Assembly (NCBI GenBank): GCA_030693515.1
Contig: JAUYAK010000005.1
Coordinates: 3,739-67,738, forward strand
Source: Opitutaceae bacterium
GTDB lineage: Bacteria; Verrucomicrobiota; Verrucomicrobiia; Opitutales; Opitutaceae
Reading direction: 5' to 3'
DNA length: 64,000 bases
Positions 24,241-52,961 of this stretch are shown one piece after another. Every line of letters begins with the position of its first letter. Positions within the stretch are counted from its first letter, which is position 1. A program made the position numbers and the translations under genes. The notes under the pieces are model-generated. The model was not told the DNA's origin. It saw only the letters and a program-made list of their open reading frames with translations, and made no database searches.

Positions 24241-24300
24241 TGTGGGAGCGAGCTTGCTCGCGACATTAGCCGCTCGGTCGCGAGCAAGCTCGCTCCCACA
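24241..24300. repeat. REP-like perfect inverted repeat (24-bp arms, 12-nt spacer)
   Basis: TGTGGGAGCGAGCTTGCTCGCGAC (24241-24264), spacer attagccgctcg, then the exact reverse complement (24277-24300). It lies in the 115-nt gap between two otherwise tightly packed operon genes. Confidence 0.95.
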
Positions 24301-44705: not shown

Positions 44706-47700
44706 CTACCCCGCCGCCAGCGCGACACTCGGCCGCAGTTCCCCTGTCGCGCGCTGGAACACCACCCAGCCGCACGCGAGGTTGAGCAACGCGATGCCCA
44801 GCAGCATCGCGCCCACCGCCGCCAGCGTGCCCGCCGCCGGGAGGGCCGCGAGACTCGGCGCAATCGCGACGACCGACGACACCGCGCCAATCGCGAGGCC
44901 CCAGACGACGAGCGTGGCGAACTCGTGAAATACCATCCGCCCCAGCACGGCGCGCGGCAGGCCGATGGCGGACATCACGGCAAACTCCCCGCGCCGCTCG
45001 CGCAGATTGCGTGCGACGACCACCGCCAGCCCGAGGCTGCCCAGCACCACGCCCAGCGTGCCGAGGGCCGTGAAGATGGCGATGTAGGTGTTCTCGATCT
45101 GGTGGAAGGCGGCGAGCACGTCGCGCGTGAGCTCGACCTTGCCCCCCGCATCCGCGGCTGAGGCTGTCAGCCGGTCCCGCAGCGCCGTGAGATCGCCGCC
45201 GGGATTCTTCGCATCGGCCAGGAAGAGCGCGTAGCCGCCACTCGACGGAAATTTTTTCAGGAACAGCGCCTCATCCACGATCAGATGGCCCTGAAAAATC
45301 GAGTCGGGCAGCGTGCCAACGATGCGCACGGCGAAGGCCCCGCCCGTTTCGTCCGTGTAGGCGAGCGTGTCGCCGACCTTGCGCTTCAACGCCCAGAGCA
45401 GGGTGTTTTCATCGACGAGCGCGGGGATCGCACCGTCGGCGTCCGGGGCCCGCAGGTTGGCCCAGCCCGCTTCCTTGGTCCGGAACGCGCCGCGCTCGGC
45501 CAGCGCCGCGGTCTCCAGCGCCAGCAGCCGCGGCTGCATCGTCGTGTTGAGATTGAAGCAATTCACGTTGTCGCCCGGCCCAACGCGAACCGGGATCACC
45601 GTCCCGAGATCGACGGCATGCTTGCCAAACAATTCGAAACCCGACGCCCGGCCGTCGCGCGCATGATTCTGCGGCACCGTCGTCTCGATCCAGAATGCGA
45701 AACCGCCCGTGCCGCTCGCGCGCACGAGCCAGTCGGCGCCGACATGTTTCCGAAACGACGCCACCGAAAGCACCATGAACACTGCCGTCGCAATCAGGCC
45801 AACGACGGTGAGGCTGCGCGCGCGGCGCGCGGCGAGGTTGCGTCGCGCGAGCCTCCGCGCATCGAGCACCCCATCGGCCTGGGGTTCACGGGCCAGCCAC
45901 GCACGGCAGCCTGCGAGACCCGCCACCAACCACGAAAAACCCGCCAGATAGAACGCGATCTGCGCCGGCAGCCCGCCTCGCGACGCGATGAGCGCCGCGA
46001 CGCCCGTGACGGCGGCGAGCGCAGCGAGGATGATGGCGTTGCGCCGCGCCTGGGCCGGCGGCGCGGTTTCCTCGGCACTCGCGGCAAGGCGAATTGAGAG
46101 CGCGCGCCGGGTCTGGCGGCGAATCGCGAGCCACACCGCTCCGAGCGAAATGACCAAGAAGGCCCCGAGACCGGCCCCCACGCTCGCCGGCTGCATCGCA
46201 AATGTGAACACCGCCCCACCCCCCTGCCCCGCCCAGATCCGTTCGAGAAAGCGCAGGATGCCCTGGGTGTAGAGCGCCGCGAGCGGCACGCCCACTGCGC
46301 CCGCCACGATTAGGATCACCAGCGCCTCGCCGAGGCGCCAGCGGCCGATCTGCCGCGCCGGCACGCCGACGGCGCCGAGCAGCGCATCCTCCCGGTTGCG
46401 CAGCAGCAGCGAGAGCTGGAAGAGCATCGCGACCAGCCCCAGCGCCGCGAGAATCAGGAAGAAACTCATGCCGAGGAACAGCCCGCCGAAATCGACCGCC
46501 GACTGCGCCAAGTCCGCCGCGCCCGCGCGCACGTTGCGCACGAGCATTTGATTCAGTTCCGGGCGCAGCGCGGCCAAAGCCTGGCGCTCCAGCTCACCCG
46601 CTTGCCCCCGTGGGGCTGCGACGCGCAAGGCCGTCAGCTCGCCCCAGCGCGTCGCCCACATCTCGCGCCCGGCGGCGATGGGAAACCAAGCCTTGGGTGT
46701 GCCGCGATGATCGTCCCAGTAGCGTTCATCCTGATCGCGGATACGTTCGAGCTTCAGCGGCAATCCCGGATCCCAGTCGCTCTGGTTCTTCACATCGCTG
46801 ATGCCGGGAAACTCCGGCATCCACGCCCGATCCGCCGCCACGCCATCCAGCGGCACCACCGCGCGCACCCGGAACGCGGTGCTGTGTTCCGCGAGCACGT
46901 CGCCTGCGCCAACTTGGAAATAGGTCGCGGTCAGCTCGGCGCCGGGCCCCACCTGCAGATCGTCCGCCAGCCAGCGGTTAATCACGACTTCGCGCGGACC
47001 GAGGTCGGCCGGCAAAAACGGCGCAACTGCCGCCGTGGTCGCCGTGGCGATGGAATACGGCGTGGCCCGCCCGCCGGACCGCAGTTCGTTGACGAGGTAG
47101 GAAGCGACCGGCTGCGCCTGCGGCATCTCGCCGGTGATCGCCCGCACGAGGGCCGGATCGAGGAAGATGCGATCGGAGGTGAAATCAAAAACCTGCGCGG
47201 CCTCGCGCCACGGCAGCGCGAGTCCGTAGTCGGCGAGCCGGACCGTCGCCGCGAGCGCGGCGGACAATTCGGCATCGGTCCGCGTGCCGGAGATGAGCAG
47301 CAGATTGGCGCGCTGCGGTCGGTTTAGCGCGGTCTGCAAGAGCGCCATCGGCAAAAAAACCGATGGCGGCGGCACCTGGGTCGCCTCCAGATTGAAGCGC
47401 CCAAAGGCCGCATCGCCCACGATCACGGCCACCGTGCCGCGCACGGCCTCGAGCTTGGCCTCCGCTCCGGCGATGGGGGCGTTGCCCGCGAGCACGCCGG
47501 GTTTCTGCAAGCGCACGACGAGAGTGTCGCCGACCTTCAGCGCGAGACGACGGGCCAGCGTCTCGTTGACCGCCACTTCGTTTTTCTCGGCGTCGAGCGG
47601 GATCGCCGCAGGCTCGGGGGCCAGCTGCCAGAAGGCGGGCGTCACGCCCACGAGCTGCACTTGCGTGGCAAACGCCCGCGTCGCGGGCTGCGTCGCCGTG

Positions 47701-47975
47701 CCCCGGGCCAGCAGCACGGGCGCGGCGCGCACCTTAGCCGCCGTCGCCAACTCGGCCGCCAGCGCTTCGCGGAAAAATCGATCACCCGCGGCCACGACGT
47801 GGGTCGCCTGACCGATGCGCTGCGCCGCGATCCGTCGCAGTGAGGCCGCGACCGAGTCGCCGGCGAAGAGCGCGCCGAGCAGGACCGTCGCGCCCAGCAC
47901 CGCGCCGGCGAAGACGCCGAGGTAGGCGAAACGATGATGCGCGACGCTGCGCAGGATGTAGCGAAGAGTGGTCAT
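44706..47975 (-). CDS. ABC transporter permease, FtsX/MacB-type (multi-domain, 1089 aa)
   Basis: N-terminus LRYILRSVAHHRFAY and repeated FtsX-like TM bundles. Immediately downstream of the LolD/MacB-type ATPase. Confidence 0.8.
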   Translation of the reverse strand: MTTLRYILRSVAHHRFAYLGVFAGAVLGATVLLGALFAGDSVAASLRRIAAQRIGQATHVVAAGDRFFREALAAELATAAKVRAAPVLLARGTATQPATRAFATQVQLVGVTPAFWQLAPEPAAIPLDAEKNEVAVNETLARRLALKVGDTLVVRLQKPGVLAGNAPIAGAEAKLEAVRGTVAVIVGDAAFGRFNLEATQVPPPSVFLPMALLQTALNRPQRANLLLISGTRTDAELSAALAATVRLADYGLALPWREAAQVFDFTSDRIFLDPALVRAITGEMPQAQPVASYLVNELRSGGRATPYSIATATTAAVAPFLPADLGPREVVINRWLADDLQVGPGAELTATYFQVGAGDVLAEHSTAFRVRAVVPLDGVAADRAWMPEFPGISDVKNQSDWDPGLPLKLERIRDQDERYWDDHRGTPKAWFPIAAGREMWATRWGELTALRVAAPRGQAGELERQALAALRPELNQMLVRNVRAGAADLAQSAVDFGGLFLGMSFFLILAALGLVAMLFQLSLLLRNREDALLGAVGVPARQIGRWRLGEALVILIVAGAVGVPLAALYTQGILRFLERIWAGQGGGAVFTFAMQPASVGAGLGAFLVISLGAVWLAIRRQTRRALSIRLAASAEETAPPAQARRNAIILAALAAVTGVAALIASRGGLPAQIAFYLAGFSWLVAGLAGCRAWLAREPQADGVLDARRLARRNLAARRARSLTVVGLIATAVFMVLSVASFRKHVGADWLVRASGTGGFAFWIETTVPQNHARDGRASGFELFGKHAVDLGTVIPVRVGPGDNVNCFNLNTTMQPRLLALETAALAERGAFRTKEAGWANLRAPDADGAIPALVDENTLLWALKRKVGDTLAYTDETGGAFAVRIVGTLPDSIFQGHLIVDEALFLKKFPSSGGYALFLADAKNPGGDLTALRDRLTASAADAGGKVELTRDVLAAFHQIENTYIAIFTALGTLGVVLGSLGLAVVVARNLRERRGEFAVMSAIGLPRAVLGRMVFHEFATLVVWGLAIGAVSSVVAIAPSLAALPAAGTLAAVGAMLLGIALLNLACGWVVFQRATGELRPSVALAAG

Positions 47976-47994: not shown

Positions 47995-48666
47995 TCACGG
48001 CACCAGCCGGCCGGATTCGAGCCGCAGGGTGCGGCCTAGGCGGCCGGCGAGGCCGGGATTGTGGGTCACGACGACGAGCGCCGCTCCGGAAGTCGCGTTG
48101 GTCTGCAACAGCAGCTCCGCGATCCGTTCGCCGGTGGCGGTGTCGAGCGAGCCCGTCGGCTCATCGGCGAGGATGACCTTGGGCTGGTTGATCAACGCGC
48201 GCGCGATCGCGACGCGGAGTTGTTCGCCACCGGAGAGCTGCCACGGCCGGTGCGCGATGCGATCACGCAGGCCGACCTGCTCCAGCAGGGCCTCCGCCCG
48301 CGCGCGCACGTCGCCCTCCGGCTCATCCCAGCCACCGGCGAGACGGGGCACGAGCACATTTTCCAAAATCGAGCACTGCGGCAGCAGGTAGTGCAGTTGA
48401 AAAATGAACCCGATCGTGCGATTGCGGAAACGCGCCGCGGCCGTGGCATCGAGCCCACCGAGCGCGGTCCCATCGATGGTGATCGAGCCGGACGTGGGCT
48501 GATCGAGGGCACCGAGGAGATTGAGCAGCGTGGTCTTGCCGCTCCCCGAGGGACCGACGATGGCGACGGACTCGCCCGCCGCCACCCGCAGATCGAGATC
48601 ACGCAGCACCGACACCGGGCCGGCGGGGTTCTCGTAGGATTTGGCCACACGGACGACGTCGATCAT
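47995..48666 (-). CDS. ABC transporter ATP-binding protein (LolD/MacB-like)
   Basis: ATG at 48666. Walker A GPSGSGKTT, signature LSGGEQLRVAIARAL, Walker B ILADEPTG. The ORF-track N-terminal extension runs into the MITE-like element and is rejected. Confidence 0.92.
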   Translation of the reverse strand: MIDVVRVAKSYENPAGPVSVLRDLDLRVAAGESVAIVGPSGSGKTTLLNLLGALDQPTSGSITIDGTALGGLDATAAARFRNRTIGFIFQLHYLLPQCSILENVLVPRLAGGWDEPEGDVRARAEALLEQVGLRDRIAHRPWQLSGGEQLRVAIARALINQPKVILADEPTGSLDTATGERIAELLLQTNATSGAALVVVTHNPGLAGRLGRTLRLESGRLVP

Positions 48667-48753
48667 GGTGAAAGGAGAGTCGAGGCAGTTAGCCACAGAG
48701 GGACACGCATCGTCCCTCATCTTTCTGGGCAAAGGCGGCACGGAGCAAGCTCC

Positions 48754-48893
48754 CCGGAGCGTTGGTAGTGGTATAGTTTGGAAACGAATAACTGCCGGGT
48801 AGGCAGCGAGCTTGCTCGCGCCCGTCCATTCAACACTGAGCGCCCGCAAGCGGGCTGCCTACGAAATTCAAACTATACCACGACCGGAGCGTT
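48754..48893. mobile_element. MITE-like element (~120 bp) with 15-bp terminal inverted repeats and 10-bp flanking direct repeats
   Basis: Direct repeat CCGGAGCGTT at 48754-48763 and 48884-48893. TIRs are TAGTGGTATAGTTTG (48766-48780) and CAAACTATACCACGA (48869-48883), 14/15 complementary. Two inverted REP-like units lie inside (GTAGGCAGCGAGCTTGCTCGCGCC and GCGCCCGCAAGCGGGCTGCCTAC). Confidence 0.7.
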
Positions 48894-48921
48894 TGACGGC
48901 AAATGCCACGCCTGTCCCCGC

Positions 48922-51861
48922 TCAGTGGTCGCTTTTGAGAAACCCGATCAGGTTCGCGAGCTCGTCGCCAGTCATCGTCTGTTCGAGTCCGTCGGGCATG
49001 ACGGATAATCCCGAAGCCGTGAGAGCCGCCACGTTCGCGCGCAGGACGGTTTCCTCCGTGCCGGCGGCGGTGCGGAGCGTGAGGCTGCTCTCCGTCTCCG
49101 CCGCGAGCCAGCCCGCGAGCGTGCGACCGTCCTGCGTCGTCACGGTGGTCATCTGGTAGCTGGGCGCGACCTCGTAGTTGGGCACGATGATGTGCAGCAG
49201 AATCGCATCGGCCGGCTGATGGCGCAGCCCGGAGAGATCGGGGCCGACCAGGCTGCCCTGGCCGCGAAACGTGTGGCAAGCCGCGCAGGCCCGCGCAAAG
49301 GCCGCGCGCCCGCTCGCGACGTCCGTGCCGGGCACGAAGCCCGTCCGCAGGCGCTGATAAACCTTCATGCGATCGCCGGCCTCGACTTGCTGGAAGATCG
49401 CCTCGGCGGCTTTCCGCATCGCGGCGTCGCTGTGCTTGAGCAATTGCGCGCGCCGCGTGGACGAGATTTCCAACGGCGACACCGTGCCACCCTTGATCGC
49501 GGCAAACAGCACGGCGGTCAGCGCGGGTTTCGCCGCAAGCGCGGCGACAGCGGCCTCGCGCACCGGCGGCGTGTAGCGCGGCCAGTTTTCCTGCGCCATC
49601 AGCAGCTCCGCCCCGCGCGGATCACCGATGCGTTCAATCGCGCGGATCGCCTGCTGCTGGATTTCTGGCGACTGCCGCGCGTCGAGAGCGCGGCCGAGGG
49701 CTTGGCCGGCCGTCGCGATCGTGCCATAGCCAAGGAGTGCGAGCGCCGCGACTCGATCCGCCTTTGATGCGCGCTCGTCCATCGCGCGATGAGCCGCCGC
49801 CTCGTGCAGCGCCGCGAGGGCCGCGGAGTCGCCGTCACGCAAAAGGGAATTGAGCGAGAACTTCGGTGCACTCCGCACGCGCAGCCCCTCCGCCAACCCG
49901 AGCACGGCGGCGATCCGGCCCCCGATCGCGGTGCCCTCGTGCAGCGCCGGGGCCACAAATTCCCGACAATCCTCGGCGCTCGCGCCGACGCCGAAAACGC
50001 GCCCGAGCTGCTCCATCATTATGGCGAAATTCGCCGGACTCGACTCGTCGTGTTGCCGAAGTGCCGCCAAAAACTCCCGGAGGCGGCCGCCGATTCCGCT
50101 CAGCACCGCCGCCCGGGCCCAGCGATCCGCGCCGTCGCGCAACGCCACGTCCGCCAGCGCAGAGGTCGCTGCCGGGCCAGCGTGGCTGTCGACCGCCAGG
50201 GCCGCCACGAACCGCACGCGCGCATCGGAATCGGCCGTCGCGGCCAGCACGGCGTCCTTCAACCCGCTGGCGGAGTCGCGGTGCTCGGCGGCGAGCAGCA
50301 CACCTTGCTCACGCACTCGCGCATCGCCGTCGCGCAGCGCCGTGACGAGGTTCGCGGGGGATAACTTCCCAAGGCCGCGCAAAGTCCACAGCGCGCGGGT
50401 GCGCACCGCGGCGGTTTTCCCCCGCTCCGCGAGCACCGTGAGCGCGGGCGCGAGTTCCTGCGTCTGCCGATCGACGATCAGGCGCTGCGCCCGCGCCCGC
50501 CACCATTCACCCTCCGCCTCCAGCCCCGCCACGAGATCGTCGGACGCGGGCAGGTTCAGTTGAAGACGTGGTTCGTCGCGCACGATGCGCCAGATGCGGC
50601 CGCGATCCTTGCCTGACTCGAAATCGAGCAGGCCGCGCGATCCCTCCGGCACATAGCGCGGGTGATCGATTTCGCGGCGATACATGTCGGCGACGTAGAG
50701 GGCGCCGTCGGGGCCCTCCCCGGCAAAGACCGGGCGAAACCACACATCGGTCGAGGCGAGAAATTCGCGGCCACCTTCAATCCGTGCGTCCGAACGAAAC
50801 GACGCTCCCTCGACGCGCAGAGTCTGCCGCTGCACGAGATTCTGCGCGGGCTCGCAGACAAACACGTCGCCGACATGCGCGGCCATGAGTCCCGTGCCGC
50901 CGAAAATCACGAGCCCACACGCCGAGGTGAAGGTGCCCGTGTGCGGCGCGCCCATCAGCTTCGGGATGAAGTCCGCCGTGATCGACGCGCGGCTGATCGG
51001 GAGCACCTTGGCCTCGGCCTGCACCTTGGAGACTTCCTGCATCGTCTCGCTGAACGCGAAATTCGGGTTCCGCAGGTGCCACGGCTCGAGCACCACGTGC
51101 AGGATCGGCCGGCGGTTGTCGGTCACGAAGCGCCGCCCAAAGGCATCGAAGGCCAATCCGAACTGCCCGCGGCCACCGGTCTTCTCGTAGATCAGCGTCT
51201 CAGGGTCGAAGCGGCCATCCTGCGCGGTGAAAACGACCGGCGCGCGCTCGGGATGCAGCGGCGAGGTGACCTTGCCGCCGTTGAGGCCGCCGGTGACGTA
51301 GATTTTTCCGTCGAGGCCGAGCGTGGGATGGCTCACCCGGATTTGCGCGGTTTTGGAAATGTCGAACCCCGTCAGCACCACGCGCCGTTCGTCGGCGACG
51401 CCATCGCCATCCGTGTCTTTTAAATAGAGAATGTCGGGGGCCGCGGTGACAAACATCCCGCCGCGCCACAACGCGAGGCCGTTCACCAAGCCGAGGCCGG
51501 TCGCGAATTCGGTCCGCCGATCCATGCGCCCGTCACCGTCGGTGTCTTCGAGCAGGGCGATGCGCCCCGCCGTCGATTCGACGCTCCCCTCCTGCGCATC
51601 GGGATAGCCGCGATTCTCGACGACAAACATCCGGCCCGGCCCGTCGAACGCGAAGGCCACCGGGTCCACCGTGAGCGGCTCGGCGGCGACGAGTTCCACG
51701 CGCAGGCCCGCCTCGACACGAAACGCCGCGAGCGCCTGCTCCGGCGCGAGCGCAGGGTGCCGGTCCGCCGCCAAAAGCGCCGCCCCGCTCCCGCCAGCGC
51801 CCAGCGCGCACGCCATGCGCATCGTCCGGGACGCGATCGCAAAGCGTGTGGCCAGCTTCAT
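48922..51861 (-). CDS. PVC-type heme-binding CxxCH protein (membrane-bound-dehydrogenase-like beta-propeller + HEAT repeats + C-terminal cytochrome c)
   Basis: ATG at 51861 with a signal peptide. VDPVAFAFDGPGRMFVVENRGYPD, GDGVADE-type motifs, HEAT-like helical repeats, and a C-terminal heme site CAACH followed by GPDLSG. Confidence 0.85.
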   Translation of the reverse strand: MKLATRFAIASRTMRMACALGAGGSGAALLAADRHPALAPEQALAAFRVEAGLRVELVAAEPLTVDPVAFAFDGPGRMFVVENRGYPDAQEGSVESTAGRIALLEDTDGDGRMDRRTEFATGLGLVNGLALWRGGMFVTAAPDILYLKDTDGDGVADERRVVLTGFDISKTAQIRVSHPTLGLDGKIYVTGGLNGGKVTSPLHPERAPVVFTAQDGRFDPETLIYEKTGGRGQFGLAFDAFGRRFVTDNRRPILHVVLEPWHLRNPNFAFSETMQEVSKVQAEAKVLPISRASITADFIPKLMGAPHTGTFTSACGLVIFGGTGLMAAHVGDVFVCEPAQNLVQRQTLRVEGASFRSDARIEGGREFLASTDVWFRPVFAGEGPDGALYVADMYRREIDHPRYVPEGSRGLLDFESGKDRGRIWRIVRDEPRLQLNLPASDDLVAGLEAEGEWWRARAQRLIVDRQTQELAPALTVLAERGKTAAVRTRALWTLRGLGKLSPANLVTALRDGDARVREQGVLLAAEHRDSASGLKDAVLAATADSDARVRFVAALAVDSHAGPAATSALADVALRDGADRWARAAVLSGIGGRLREFLAALRQHDESSPANFAIMMEQLGRVFGVGASAEDCREFVAPALHEGTAIGGRIAAVLGLAEGLRVRSAPKFSLNSLLRDGDSAALAALHEAAAHRAMDERASKADRVAALALLGYGTIATAGQALGRALDARQSPEIQQQAIRAIERIGDPRGAELLMAQENWPRYTPPVREAAVAALAAKPALTAVLFAAIKGGTVSPLEISSTRRAQLLKHSDAAMRKAAEAIFQQVEAGDRMKVYQRLRTGFVPGTDVASGRAAFARACAACHTFRGQGSLVGPDLSGLRHQPADAILLHIIVPNYEVAPSYQMTTVTTQDGRTLAGWLAAETESSLTLRTAAGTEETVLRANVAALTASGLSVMPDGLEQTMTGDELANLIGFLKSDH

Positions 51862-51923
51862 CCTCCCGGGATGGAGGCGGGGTTCATCCGTGGCAACCAC
51901 AGCCGACTGCGTTTGCCCGGAGC

Positions 51924-52961
51924 TTATCTCAGCTCCGCCTTGAGCCGCTGCGCGACCGCCCGGGAAAATTGATCCGCCCCCGCAGCGTTCAGGTGCTGCG
52001 AATTGTAGAAATTGGCCGTGCTCTGGCAGAGTGGCGATTCGCTGAAATCCCAGAAGTCCGCGCCAAACCGGGCCGCCAGCGTGCGGAACTTGGCAAAGAT
52101 CTCGGCGCGATTTTTCAGGAGCGCCTGCGACTCGGCATACTCCGGCGAATAGCAGAGGATCGCGCGGATGCCCTGCTCCTGGCAGAGGCGCAGCACGTCC
52201 TCGATGGCCGTGACGCCGGCGGGATCGATCCGGCGCGCGACGCCGCTGTCCTTCAGGTTTTTCCGGTAGGCCTCGAAATCCTCCGTCCAGCTGAGCTGCC
52301 GCGGATTGAAGCCGAGGAAATGATCTTCGCGCGGCATCACGCCCACCCAGGCGGCGGCGGCGCGCGCCCAGTTGAAATTCATGTCCTCGACCGCGTAGCC
52401 ATAGAGCGGGATGCGCCGCCATTTCCAGACCTCCGGGTTGATGGCCGTGAGCGCCCGGTAGAGCTCCGGTTCGTGCAGATAGGGCACGAACATCGCCGGA
52501 TCGTAGATGGCCTCCTGGCCGGTGACCTCGAACGAAAAGCCCTCGAGGTTCTGGATGAGCACCGCGGGCTTCTTGTTATGGCGGAGGTAGGTCTTGAGCA
52601 CCGCGACCTGGAGATCGATGAGCCCGCCGTTGAGCCCGAGGTTGTAGGCGCTGCGGCCCGTCGCCTCCTGAATCACGCGGGGATCGTAGTGCACGAGCGC
52701 GCGCGAGGAGCCGTTGATGATAATCTCGGCGTTGACCTGACCGTTCACCACGCGGTTGAACGAGCCGTATTTCGAGGTCTTGATGCGCCGCAGCCCCGCG
52801 TTGAAGAACGCATCGAGCACAAAGGCAATCACCGCCATGAGCGCAAAAAAGCCGAGGATTTTGCCGAGGCCGCGGAAATTGTTCGGCTGATCGCGCATGA
52901 CCGGCGGGGCTTCGGGCAGGGTGACGCCATCGGCGGGCGGGGTGGGCGGTGATTCGGCCAT
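51924..52961 (-). CDS. hypothetical membrane-anchored protein (SGNH/DltD-like fold suspected)
   Basis: One N-terminal TM (LGKILGFFALMAVIAFVLDAFF). The NGSSRALVHYDP block resembles the GSS(R/E) motif of DltD/DUF1574-like proteins. ATG at 52961. Confidence 0.6.
   Translation of the reverse strand: MAESPPTPPADGVTLPEAPPVMRDQPNNFRGLGKILGFFALMAVIAFVLDAFFNAGLRRIKTSKYGSFNRVVNGQVNAEIIINGSSRALVHYDPRVIQEATGRSAYNLGLNGGLIDLQVAVLKTYLRHNKKPAVLIQNLEGFSFEVTGQEAIYDPAMFVPYLHEPELYRALTAINPEVWKWRRIPLYGYAVEDMNFNWARAAAAWVGVMPREDHFLGFNPRQLSWTEDFEAYRKNLKDSGVARRIDPAGVTAIEDVLRLCQEQGIRAILCYSPEYAESQALLKNRAEIFAKFRTLAARFGADFWDFSESPLCQSTANFYNSQHLNAAGADQFSRAVAQRLKAELR

Follow-up and report, generated by a model that had tools for sequence, protein, structure and literature searches.

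An intergenic hairpin element of an Opitutaceae genome as a very probable IS1-type MITE with a REP doublet inside

Introduction

Two genes on the minus strand of the genome of an uncultured Opitutaceae bacterium, one for a DUF7133/HEAT protein and the other at the start of an ABC-transporter operon, are separated by a short sequence with inverted ends, flanking direct repeats and a strong tendency to fold. The question raised by this locus is whether the sequence is a mobile insertion or a structured regulatory element that belongs to the site and, if it is mobile, which kind of transposase would have moved it. A preliminary description of the DNA had proposed a MITE. We followed up this proposal in the window, i.e. 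the whole 64,000-nucleotide stretch of DNA that was analysed (positions 3739-67738 of contig C87, in a 6.65-Mb assembly of 130 contigs, G000), in the rest of that assembly and in other Opitutaceae genomes.

Results

Structure and boundaries of the element

Direct reading of the window recovered the parts from which the MITE had been proposed: the identical 10-mers CCGGAGCGTT at 48754-48763 and 48884-48893, the inverted repeats TAGTGGTATAGTTTG (48766-48780) and CAAACTATACCACGA (48869-48883), and, inside these, two inverted GC-rich palindromic units at 48799-48821 and 48840-48862. Two of the lengths had to be revised. In an alignment of the copies with their flanks, the family similarity begins at GGTAGTGG and stops at CCACTACC. 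The inverted repeats, earlier given as 14/15 complementary, are in fact 17 bp long, GG and CC included, and pair at 16 of 17 positions. A 10-bp target-site duplication was rejected because the register in the other copies is 8 bp; the flanking 10-mers are nevertheless identical, since the element's terminal CC on the right is matched, on the left, by a CC that the target has by chance. The features of the locus are as follows, with the element lying between the stop of the DUF7133 gene and the start of the ABC-transporter operon.

44706-47975, minus strand: FtsX/MacB-type permease gene, after the ABC ATPase gene (Pfam FtsX, 1.1e-14)
47995-48666, minus strand: ABC-transporter ATPase gene, the downstream neighbour (Pfam ABC_tran, 1.1e-34); start codon 97 nt from the element
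48756-48763, no strand: left target-site duplication, GGAGCGTT, by direct reading, with the 8-bp register set by the other copies and by full-length IS1-type elements
48764-48885: the element read here as a MITE, 122 bp with 17-bp TIRs and an 8-bp duplication, delimited by multi-copy alignment
48764-48780, plus strand: left TIR, GGTAGTGGTATAGTTTG, an IS1-type GGnnnTG end identical to both ends of G208:C26:4297-7042
48781-48798, no strand: left subterminal spacer, GAAACGAATAACTGCCGG, conserved among copies
48799-48821, plus strand: REP unit A, GTAGGCAGCGAGCTTGCTCGCGC, a GTAG-tagged palindrome
48822-48839, no strand: spacer between REP units A and B, the loop of the whole-element hairpin
48840-48862, minus strand: REP unit B, GCGCCCGCAAGCGGGCTGCCTAC (minus strand GTAGGCAGCCCGCTTGCGGGCGC), inverted and GTAG-tagged
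48869-48885, minus strand: right TIR, CAAACTATACCACGACC, 16/17 complementary to the left TIR
48886-48893, no strand: right target-site duplication, GGAGCGTT, by direct reading
48922-52422, minus strand: gene for a 1166-aa DUF7133/HEAT protein, the upstream neighbour (Pfam DUF7133, 4.8e-115); stop codon 36 nt from the element

When the 64-kb window was searched with the 17-mer GGTAGTGGTATAGTTTG at up to two mismatches, exactly two matches were found (48764-48780 on the plus strand and 48869-48885 on the minus strand), inverted relative to each other, and none of 100 shuffled sequences contained any match. Both ends read GGTAGTG, which fits the pattern GGnnnTG, and the outer TIR thus itself includes the tetranucleotide GTAG. 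The element has no coding capacity: it encodes no transposase, and the listed open reading frames that run through it are chance frames in DNA of high GC content. An element of the TA-duplicating IS630/Tc1 type was considered and rejected, as the flanks are not TA.

Copies and target-site duplications

The family is not single-copy. BLAST searches of the window's own genome returned eight full-length copies (117-131 bp) and a truncated one, nine in all, distributed over eight contigs and in unrelated contexts; the other copies are 75-93% identical to that of the window and share its ends, and the 17-bp TIR ends are conserved across the eight. The window copy is nearest to the 122-bp consensus (118/122, 96.7%) and is the best-preserved member, the remaining copies matching the consensus at 91-95%, with one at 76%. 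Duplications were scored in exact register, by comparing the 8 bases on each side of each copy.

Window copy: GGAGCGTT and GGAGCGTT, 8/8
C102 copy: GAAAAGCA and GAAAAGCA, 8/8
C61 copy: CGGACTTC and CGGACCTC, 7/8
C114 copy: GGGTGTTC and GGATGTTC, 7/8
C30 copy: 6/8, with a 1-nt shift
C106, C58 and C71 copies (three of the eight full copies): no recognisable duplication found

Half of the full copies in this genome (4/8) have thus kept a duplication of at least 7/8. The probability of such a fixed-register match by chance is roughly 4e-4 to 1e-3, and four of them among eight copies cannot be chance. A related copy in the congener G001 is bordered by an 8/8 duplication, and eight MITEs of other genera that carry this TIR have duplications of 8/8, 9/9 and, in six cases, 7/8.

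The surroundings of the C58 copy differ from those of the rest. The flank just above this copy (G000:C58:20659-21060) is 97% identical to G047:C10:40472-40874, compared to the usual 75-85%, and its other flank contains short repeated segments. This pattern may reflect a recent transfer or rearrangement.

Orthologous sites in congeners

In the congener G047, the end of the DUF7133 gene is next to the ABC-ATPase gene as in the window, at 83-85% identity, but the two lie about 98 bp apart rather than about 250 bp; the element is absent from this orthologous intergenic region. At the C30 locus, both G047 and G022 continue across the insertion point with no element, and the extra 120 bp at the C61 locus are absent from G047. 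The window, C30 and C61 loci are therefore element-free in congeners. These absences are defined at the level of the region, as a flank divergence of about 15-20% precludes a base-exact empty site: with the nearest available genomes about 81-85% identical in the flanks, a single copy of GGAGCGTT was not recovered when the intergenic regions of the window and of G047 were aligned globally, because the intergenic DNA is too diverged. A small hairpin, GGAGCAAGCTCC, adjoins the insertion site at 48742-48755 and is kept in the MITE-free orthologous region of G047 (as CCGGAGCAAGCTCCGG); it may be an ancestral intergenic stem-loop.

IS1-type elements with matching ends

The preliminary description had suggested a search for a transposase whose element carries the same ends, and such elements exist. 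One of them is found in another Opitutaceae genus (G208:C26:4297-7042), where both ends of a 2746-bp element are GGTAGTGGTATAGTTTG (17/17 with no mismatch, and 20/20 at one end) and the 8-bp duplication CAAGGGAA (8/8) borders it on both sides. Its transposase of 281 aa matches Pfam DDE_Tnp_IS1 (PF03400) at 32.1 bits, above the cut-off of 24.1, and NCBIfam transpos_IS1 at 1.8e-15. Its homologues number more than 8000, and many carry the JGI or NCBI name 'IS1 family transposase'. At up to one mismatch, the TIR occurs in 19 of 401 Opitutaceae genomes and in 15 of 63 genera, compared to a single match for the reversed control pattern. A contig scan with the exact pattern of the MITE's right end gave no match in genomes other than the window's own.

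Within the window's own genome, a TIR scan at up to four mismatches yielded a pair 3.6 kb apart on C9. These are the ends of an IS1-family element (G000:C9:29264-32895; L031:2001-5632) with a perfect 18-bp TIR, GGTAGTGTCCTAGTTTGA, that matches the MITE at 14 of 17 positions, and with the 8-bp duplication TGAGGGAC on both sides. Its 276-aa transposase is 45% identical to the G208 enzyme and scores 30.5 bits on Pfam DDE_Tnp_IS1 (cut-off 24.1) and 7e-20 on NCBIfam transpos_IS1. This element has three passengers: a NikA-like protein of the ribbon-helix-helix type, an ORF of 118 aa and a 385-aa RelA/SpoT-domain protein that may be a toxin or a small alarmone synthetase. Two further single-copy IS1-type elements with passenger ORFs were found on C24 (L032:1498-4911, 3.4 kb) and C44 (L033:2881-6081, 3.2 kb), with the TIRs GGTGGTGTCCTAATGAC and GGCACTGTCTCATTTTGAATTT, respectively. 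Searches with the C9 and G208 elements (tblastn and blastn) detected no cognate transposase in this genome; they found only the three diverged, single-copy IS1-type genes on C9, C24 and C44. The closest proteins to the G208 enzyme in this genome have identities of 56%, 47% and 45% to it, and the TIRs of their elements are different.

Predicted fold

As had been proposed, the whole element can be folded into one long hairpin, with a predicted energy of -60.9 kcal/mol on the minus strand (z -6.55) and -57.6 kcal/mol on the plus strand (z -6.63); none of 200 shuffled sequences was as stable. Transcripts of the region, if they are made, would contain a large stem-loop of about -61 kcal/mol, which might terminate or stabilise them or have no effect. 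There is a weak terminator-like motif inside the element on the minus strand, and direct reading found no U-tract after the hairpin stem. An Rfam scan of 48300-49300 gave no match at E<1 and, at E<=10, two chance-level matches that both lie outside the element. Among seven copies, compensatory changes are found at none of the 39 base pairs, and the covariation score is the same as after shuffling. The copies are decaying independently from a hairpin-shaped master sequence, and since they diverge without compensatory changes, nothing points to selection on an RNA structure.

The REP core

The interior of the MITE (48799-48862) is a doublet of inverted GTAG-tagged REPs. In the window's own genome, unit A is found almost only in the MITE copies (10 matches at up to three mismatches, compared to nine copies), and in the congeners G006 (27 matches) and G022 (10 matches) the A+B doublet is free-standing, without the TIRs. 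An exact-pattern contig scan outside the window's own genome located unit B at more than 119 loci, almost all of them in MAGs labelled Opitutaceae or Verrucomicrobiota, and two contigs of one MAG bore the label Akkermansia; it revealed no parent IS.

Most other REPs of the genome lie outside MITEs. The free-standing families are GTGGGAGCGAGCTTGCTCGCGAC, present as doublets that include the inverted pair at 24241-24300 of the window, GTAGGAGCCCGCTTGCGGGCGAT and GTGGGAGGGGCTTTAYGCCCCGAC. Doublets of the GTGGGAGCGAGCTTGCTCGCGAC family also lie to either side of a RAYT-like Y1 transposase gene (G000:C25:4911-5594) with the HUH motif HVHLF and a PF01797 score of 37 bits. The earlier proposal, in which the element ties the REP family of the window to a mobile vehicle, therefore holds only in part: the GTAGGCAGC-type doublet is essentially confined to MITE copies in this genome, but the window's other REPs, of the GTGGGAGCGAGCTTGCTCGCGAC family, are entirely free-standing and are those that flank the RAYT-like gene, so that the MITE is not a general vehicle of these REPs. 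An abundance of GTAG repeats has been reported for Opitutus terrae (Di Nocera et al. 2013, PMC3733652).

The window's own genome contains a second subfamily of MITEs, about 90-100 bp long, with the TIR GGTAGTGGGTCAGTTTG and decayed 8-bp duplications. Four of its copies are clean (C2:34861-34962, C45:536-637, C79:15089-15180 and C102:6033-6123); a fifth lies at about C118:56470-56590, and there are degenerate remnants at other places. In its core, two REPs of the GTGGGAGGGGCTTTACGCCCCGAC type form a tight doublet; this is the third REP type of the genome, which is also found free-standing as wider-spaced doublets (C2:57454, C38:80177 and C108:76482). The MITEs of other genera that share the TIR of the window copy mostly enclose GTAG-tagged hairpins as well. 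Ends of the conserved type GGTAGTGGTAYAGTTTG enclose host-specific REP doublets tagged with GTAG or GTGG, both in the two subfamilies of this genome and in MITEs of several other genera.

Two other repeats were seen alongside. Five loci of G022 (L049, L052, L054, L057 and L059) are copies of a different MITE-like repeat, in which the TIR CCACTGCCGTTGAATTA... encloses a GTAGGCAGC-type REP doublet. In G133 (loci L283-L292), there are eight copies of a 123-bp MITE with the TIR GGTGGTGGTATAGTTTGG and a core made of a doublet of GTAG-tagged hairpins; within the G133 genome, this hairpin is found inside the MITE only.

Discussion

We consider it very probable that the 122-bp element is an IS1-family MITE with a REP-doublet interior. 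It is short and non-coding, its copies are dispersed and share their TIRs, and the duplications that border them have a fixed length. Members of the IS1 family, which in the ISfinder definition have a DDE transposase, end in GGnnnTG and are bordered by 8-9-bp direct repeats (PMC10425158, table; PMC6807381), and an IS1-family IS with a TIR beginning GGTGGTG and an 8-bp duplication has been described (PMC6382973).

To our knowledge, enzymes of the IS200/IS605 and RAYT types produce no target-site duplication. This bears on the possibility that a RAYT (an HUH/Y1 transposase) moved the element as a REPIN or as a larger unit built on REPs, the outer inverted repeats being a mere extension of the palindrome. 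Such an origin would agree with the inverted GTAG-tagged core and its free-standing occurrence in G006 and G022, with the Y1_Tnp proteins encoded in the genome, one of them flanked by REP doublets, and with the GTAG in the outer TIR. We find it very improbable, however, because 8-bp duplications border many of the copies, the outer 17-20 bp are identical to those of an element with a gene for a DDE transposase of the IS1 type, and the same TIRs surround unrelated cores in other genera. A derivation from an IS6/IS26-family element instead of IS1 would fit the same ends, as GGnnnTG termini and an 8-bp duplication are also common to the IS6 family (PMC6807381). The transposases do match the IS6/IS240 models weakly (DDE_Tnp_IS240 at 27.8 bits, NCBIfam transpos_IS6 at about 1e-7), and their NCBIfam IS1 scores of 57-72 bits are under the curated cut-off of 100. 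All four of them nevertheless score far better on IS1 (NCBIfam 1e-15 to 1e-20, versus 1e-6 to 1e-8) and exceed the Pfam cut-off for IS1, close homologues are publicly annotated as 'IS1 family transposase', and the 9-bp duplication of one relative fits the 8-9 bp of IS1. We thus give an IS6 parentage very little weight.

The remaining explanation, a conserved terminator or mRNA stabiliser of RNA or DNA that is held at the locus and does not move, drew its appeal from the very stable predicted hairpin, from the location between two genes of the same strand and from the weak terminator-like motif on the minus strand. In congeners, though, the orthologous intergenic region is devoid of it, and nine copies lie in unrelated contexts; moreover, none of the 39 pairs shows a compensatory change, covariation is at the shuffled level, there is no Rfam match at E<1 and no U-tract comes after the stem. 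Copy number and absence at orthologous sites have largely refuted this reading, which we regard as scarcely credible.

Taking the element as an IS1-type MITE, we suggest that an IS1-family DDE transposase supplied in trans would bind the two 17-bp GGnnnTG-type TIRs and insert the element at a staggered cut of 8 bp (occasionally 9 bp), and that repair of the cut would leave the flanking GGAGCGTT duplication. Transposition itself, like the responsible enzyme, is inferred. The inverted GTAG-tagged REP pair, which is REPIN-like, was probably acquired before the family was amplified, and it gives the whole element its hairpin of about -61 kcal/mol. Because the genome has only diverged relatives of the transposase, with other TIRs, present-day mobility is unsupported. 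With no cognate enzyme in their own genome and with copies that are 3-9% (one 24%) off the consensus, the MITEs most likely represent an old and now orphaned burst.

In its ends (GGTAGTG) and in its duplication of 8 bp (9 bp in one relative), the element resembles IS1-family members, and the full-length partner whose ends are identical to its own has a gene for a DDE_Tnp_IS1 protein. It differs from them in being 122 bp long and without coding capacity, and its full-length relatives in Opitutaceae are also distinct, as they are 2.7-3.6 kb long with passenger genes and have a single-ORF transposase of about 275-280 aa that falls under the curated NCBIfam cut-off for IS1. Bacterial MITEs such as MITEAba12, which is related to ISAba12 (PMC6382973), Correia/NEMIS, RUP and ERIC are likewise intergenic, multi-copy and hairpin-forming sequences of about 100-150 bp, with TIRs that match a full-length IS and with a target-site duplication. 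Here, in contrast, the parent is of the IS1 type, the host clade is Opitutaceae (Verrucomicrobiota) and the interior is a REP doublet instead of a remnant of IS sequence. That interior, two inverted GTAG-tagged palindromes with a spacer, is what REPINs and GTAG-tagged REPs with their RAYTs look like (Bertels & Rainey 2011, PMC3116915; PMC3733652), and free-standing versions in congeners and a RAYT-like gene with flanking REP doublets in this genome add to the likeness. Unlike in those systems, the doublet sits inside IS1-type TIRs with an 8-bp duplication, and RAYT-type transposition is not known to make such a duplication.

The element is thus an ordinary kind of mobile DNA, the twist being the pair of REP-type palindromes inside it; the recurrence of REP doublets within IS1-type ends is its only unusual aspect. 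One could imagine that IS1-type MITEs in Opitutaceae are systematic MITE-REPIN hybrids, which would be substrates of both a DDE IS1 enzyme (via the TIRs) and an HUH RAYT (via the REPs), or which would have captured REP doublets repeatedly because these aid the propagation of the MITE. We think this rather unlikely.

The finding adds a documented MITE family with an IS1-type parent to the Verrucomicrobiota, a phylum whose mobile elements have been little catalogued. For annotation, it means that the hairpin upstream of the ABC-transporter operon should be treated as an insertion and not as an ancestral regulatory site. The REP doublets that recur inside IS1-type ends provide a small, testable handle on the exchange of parts between REPs or REPINs and DDE-type MITEs.
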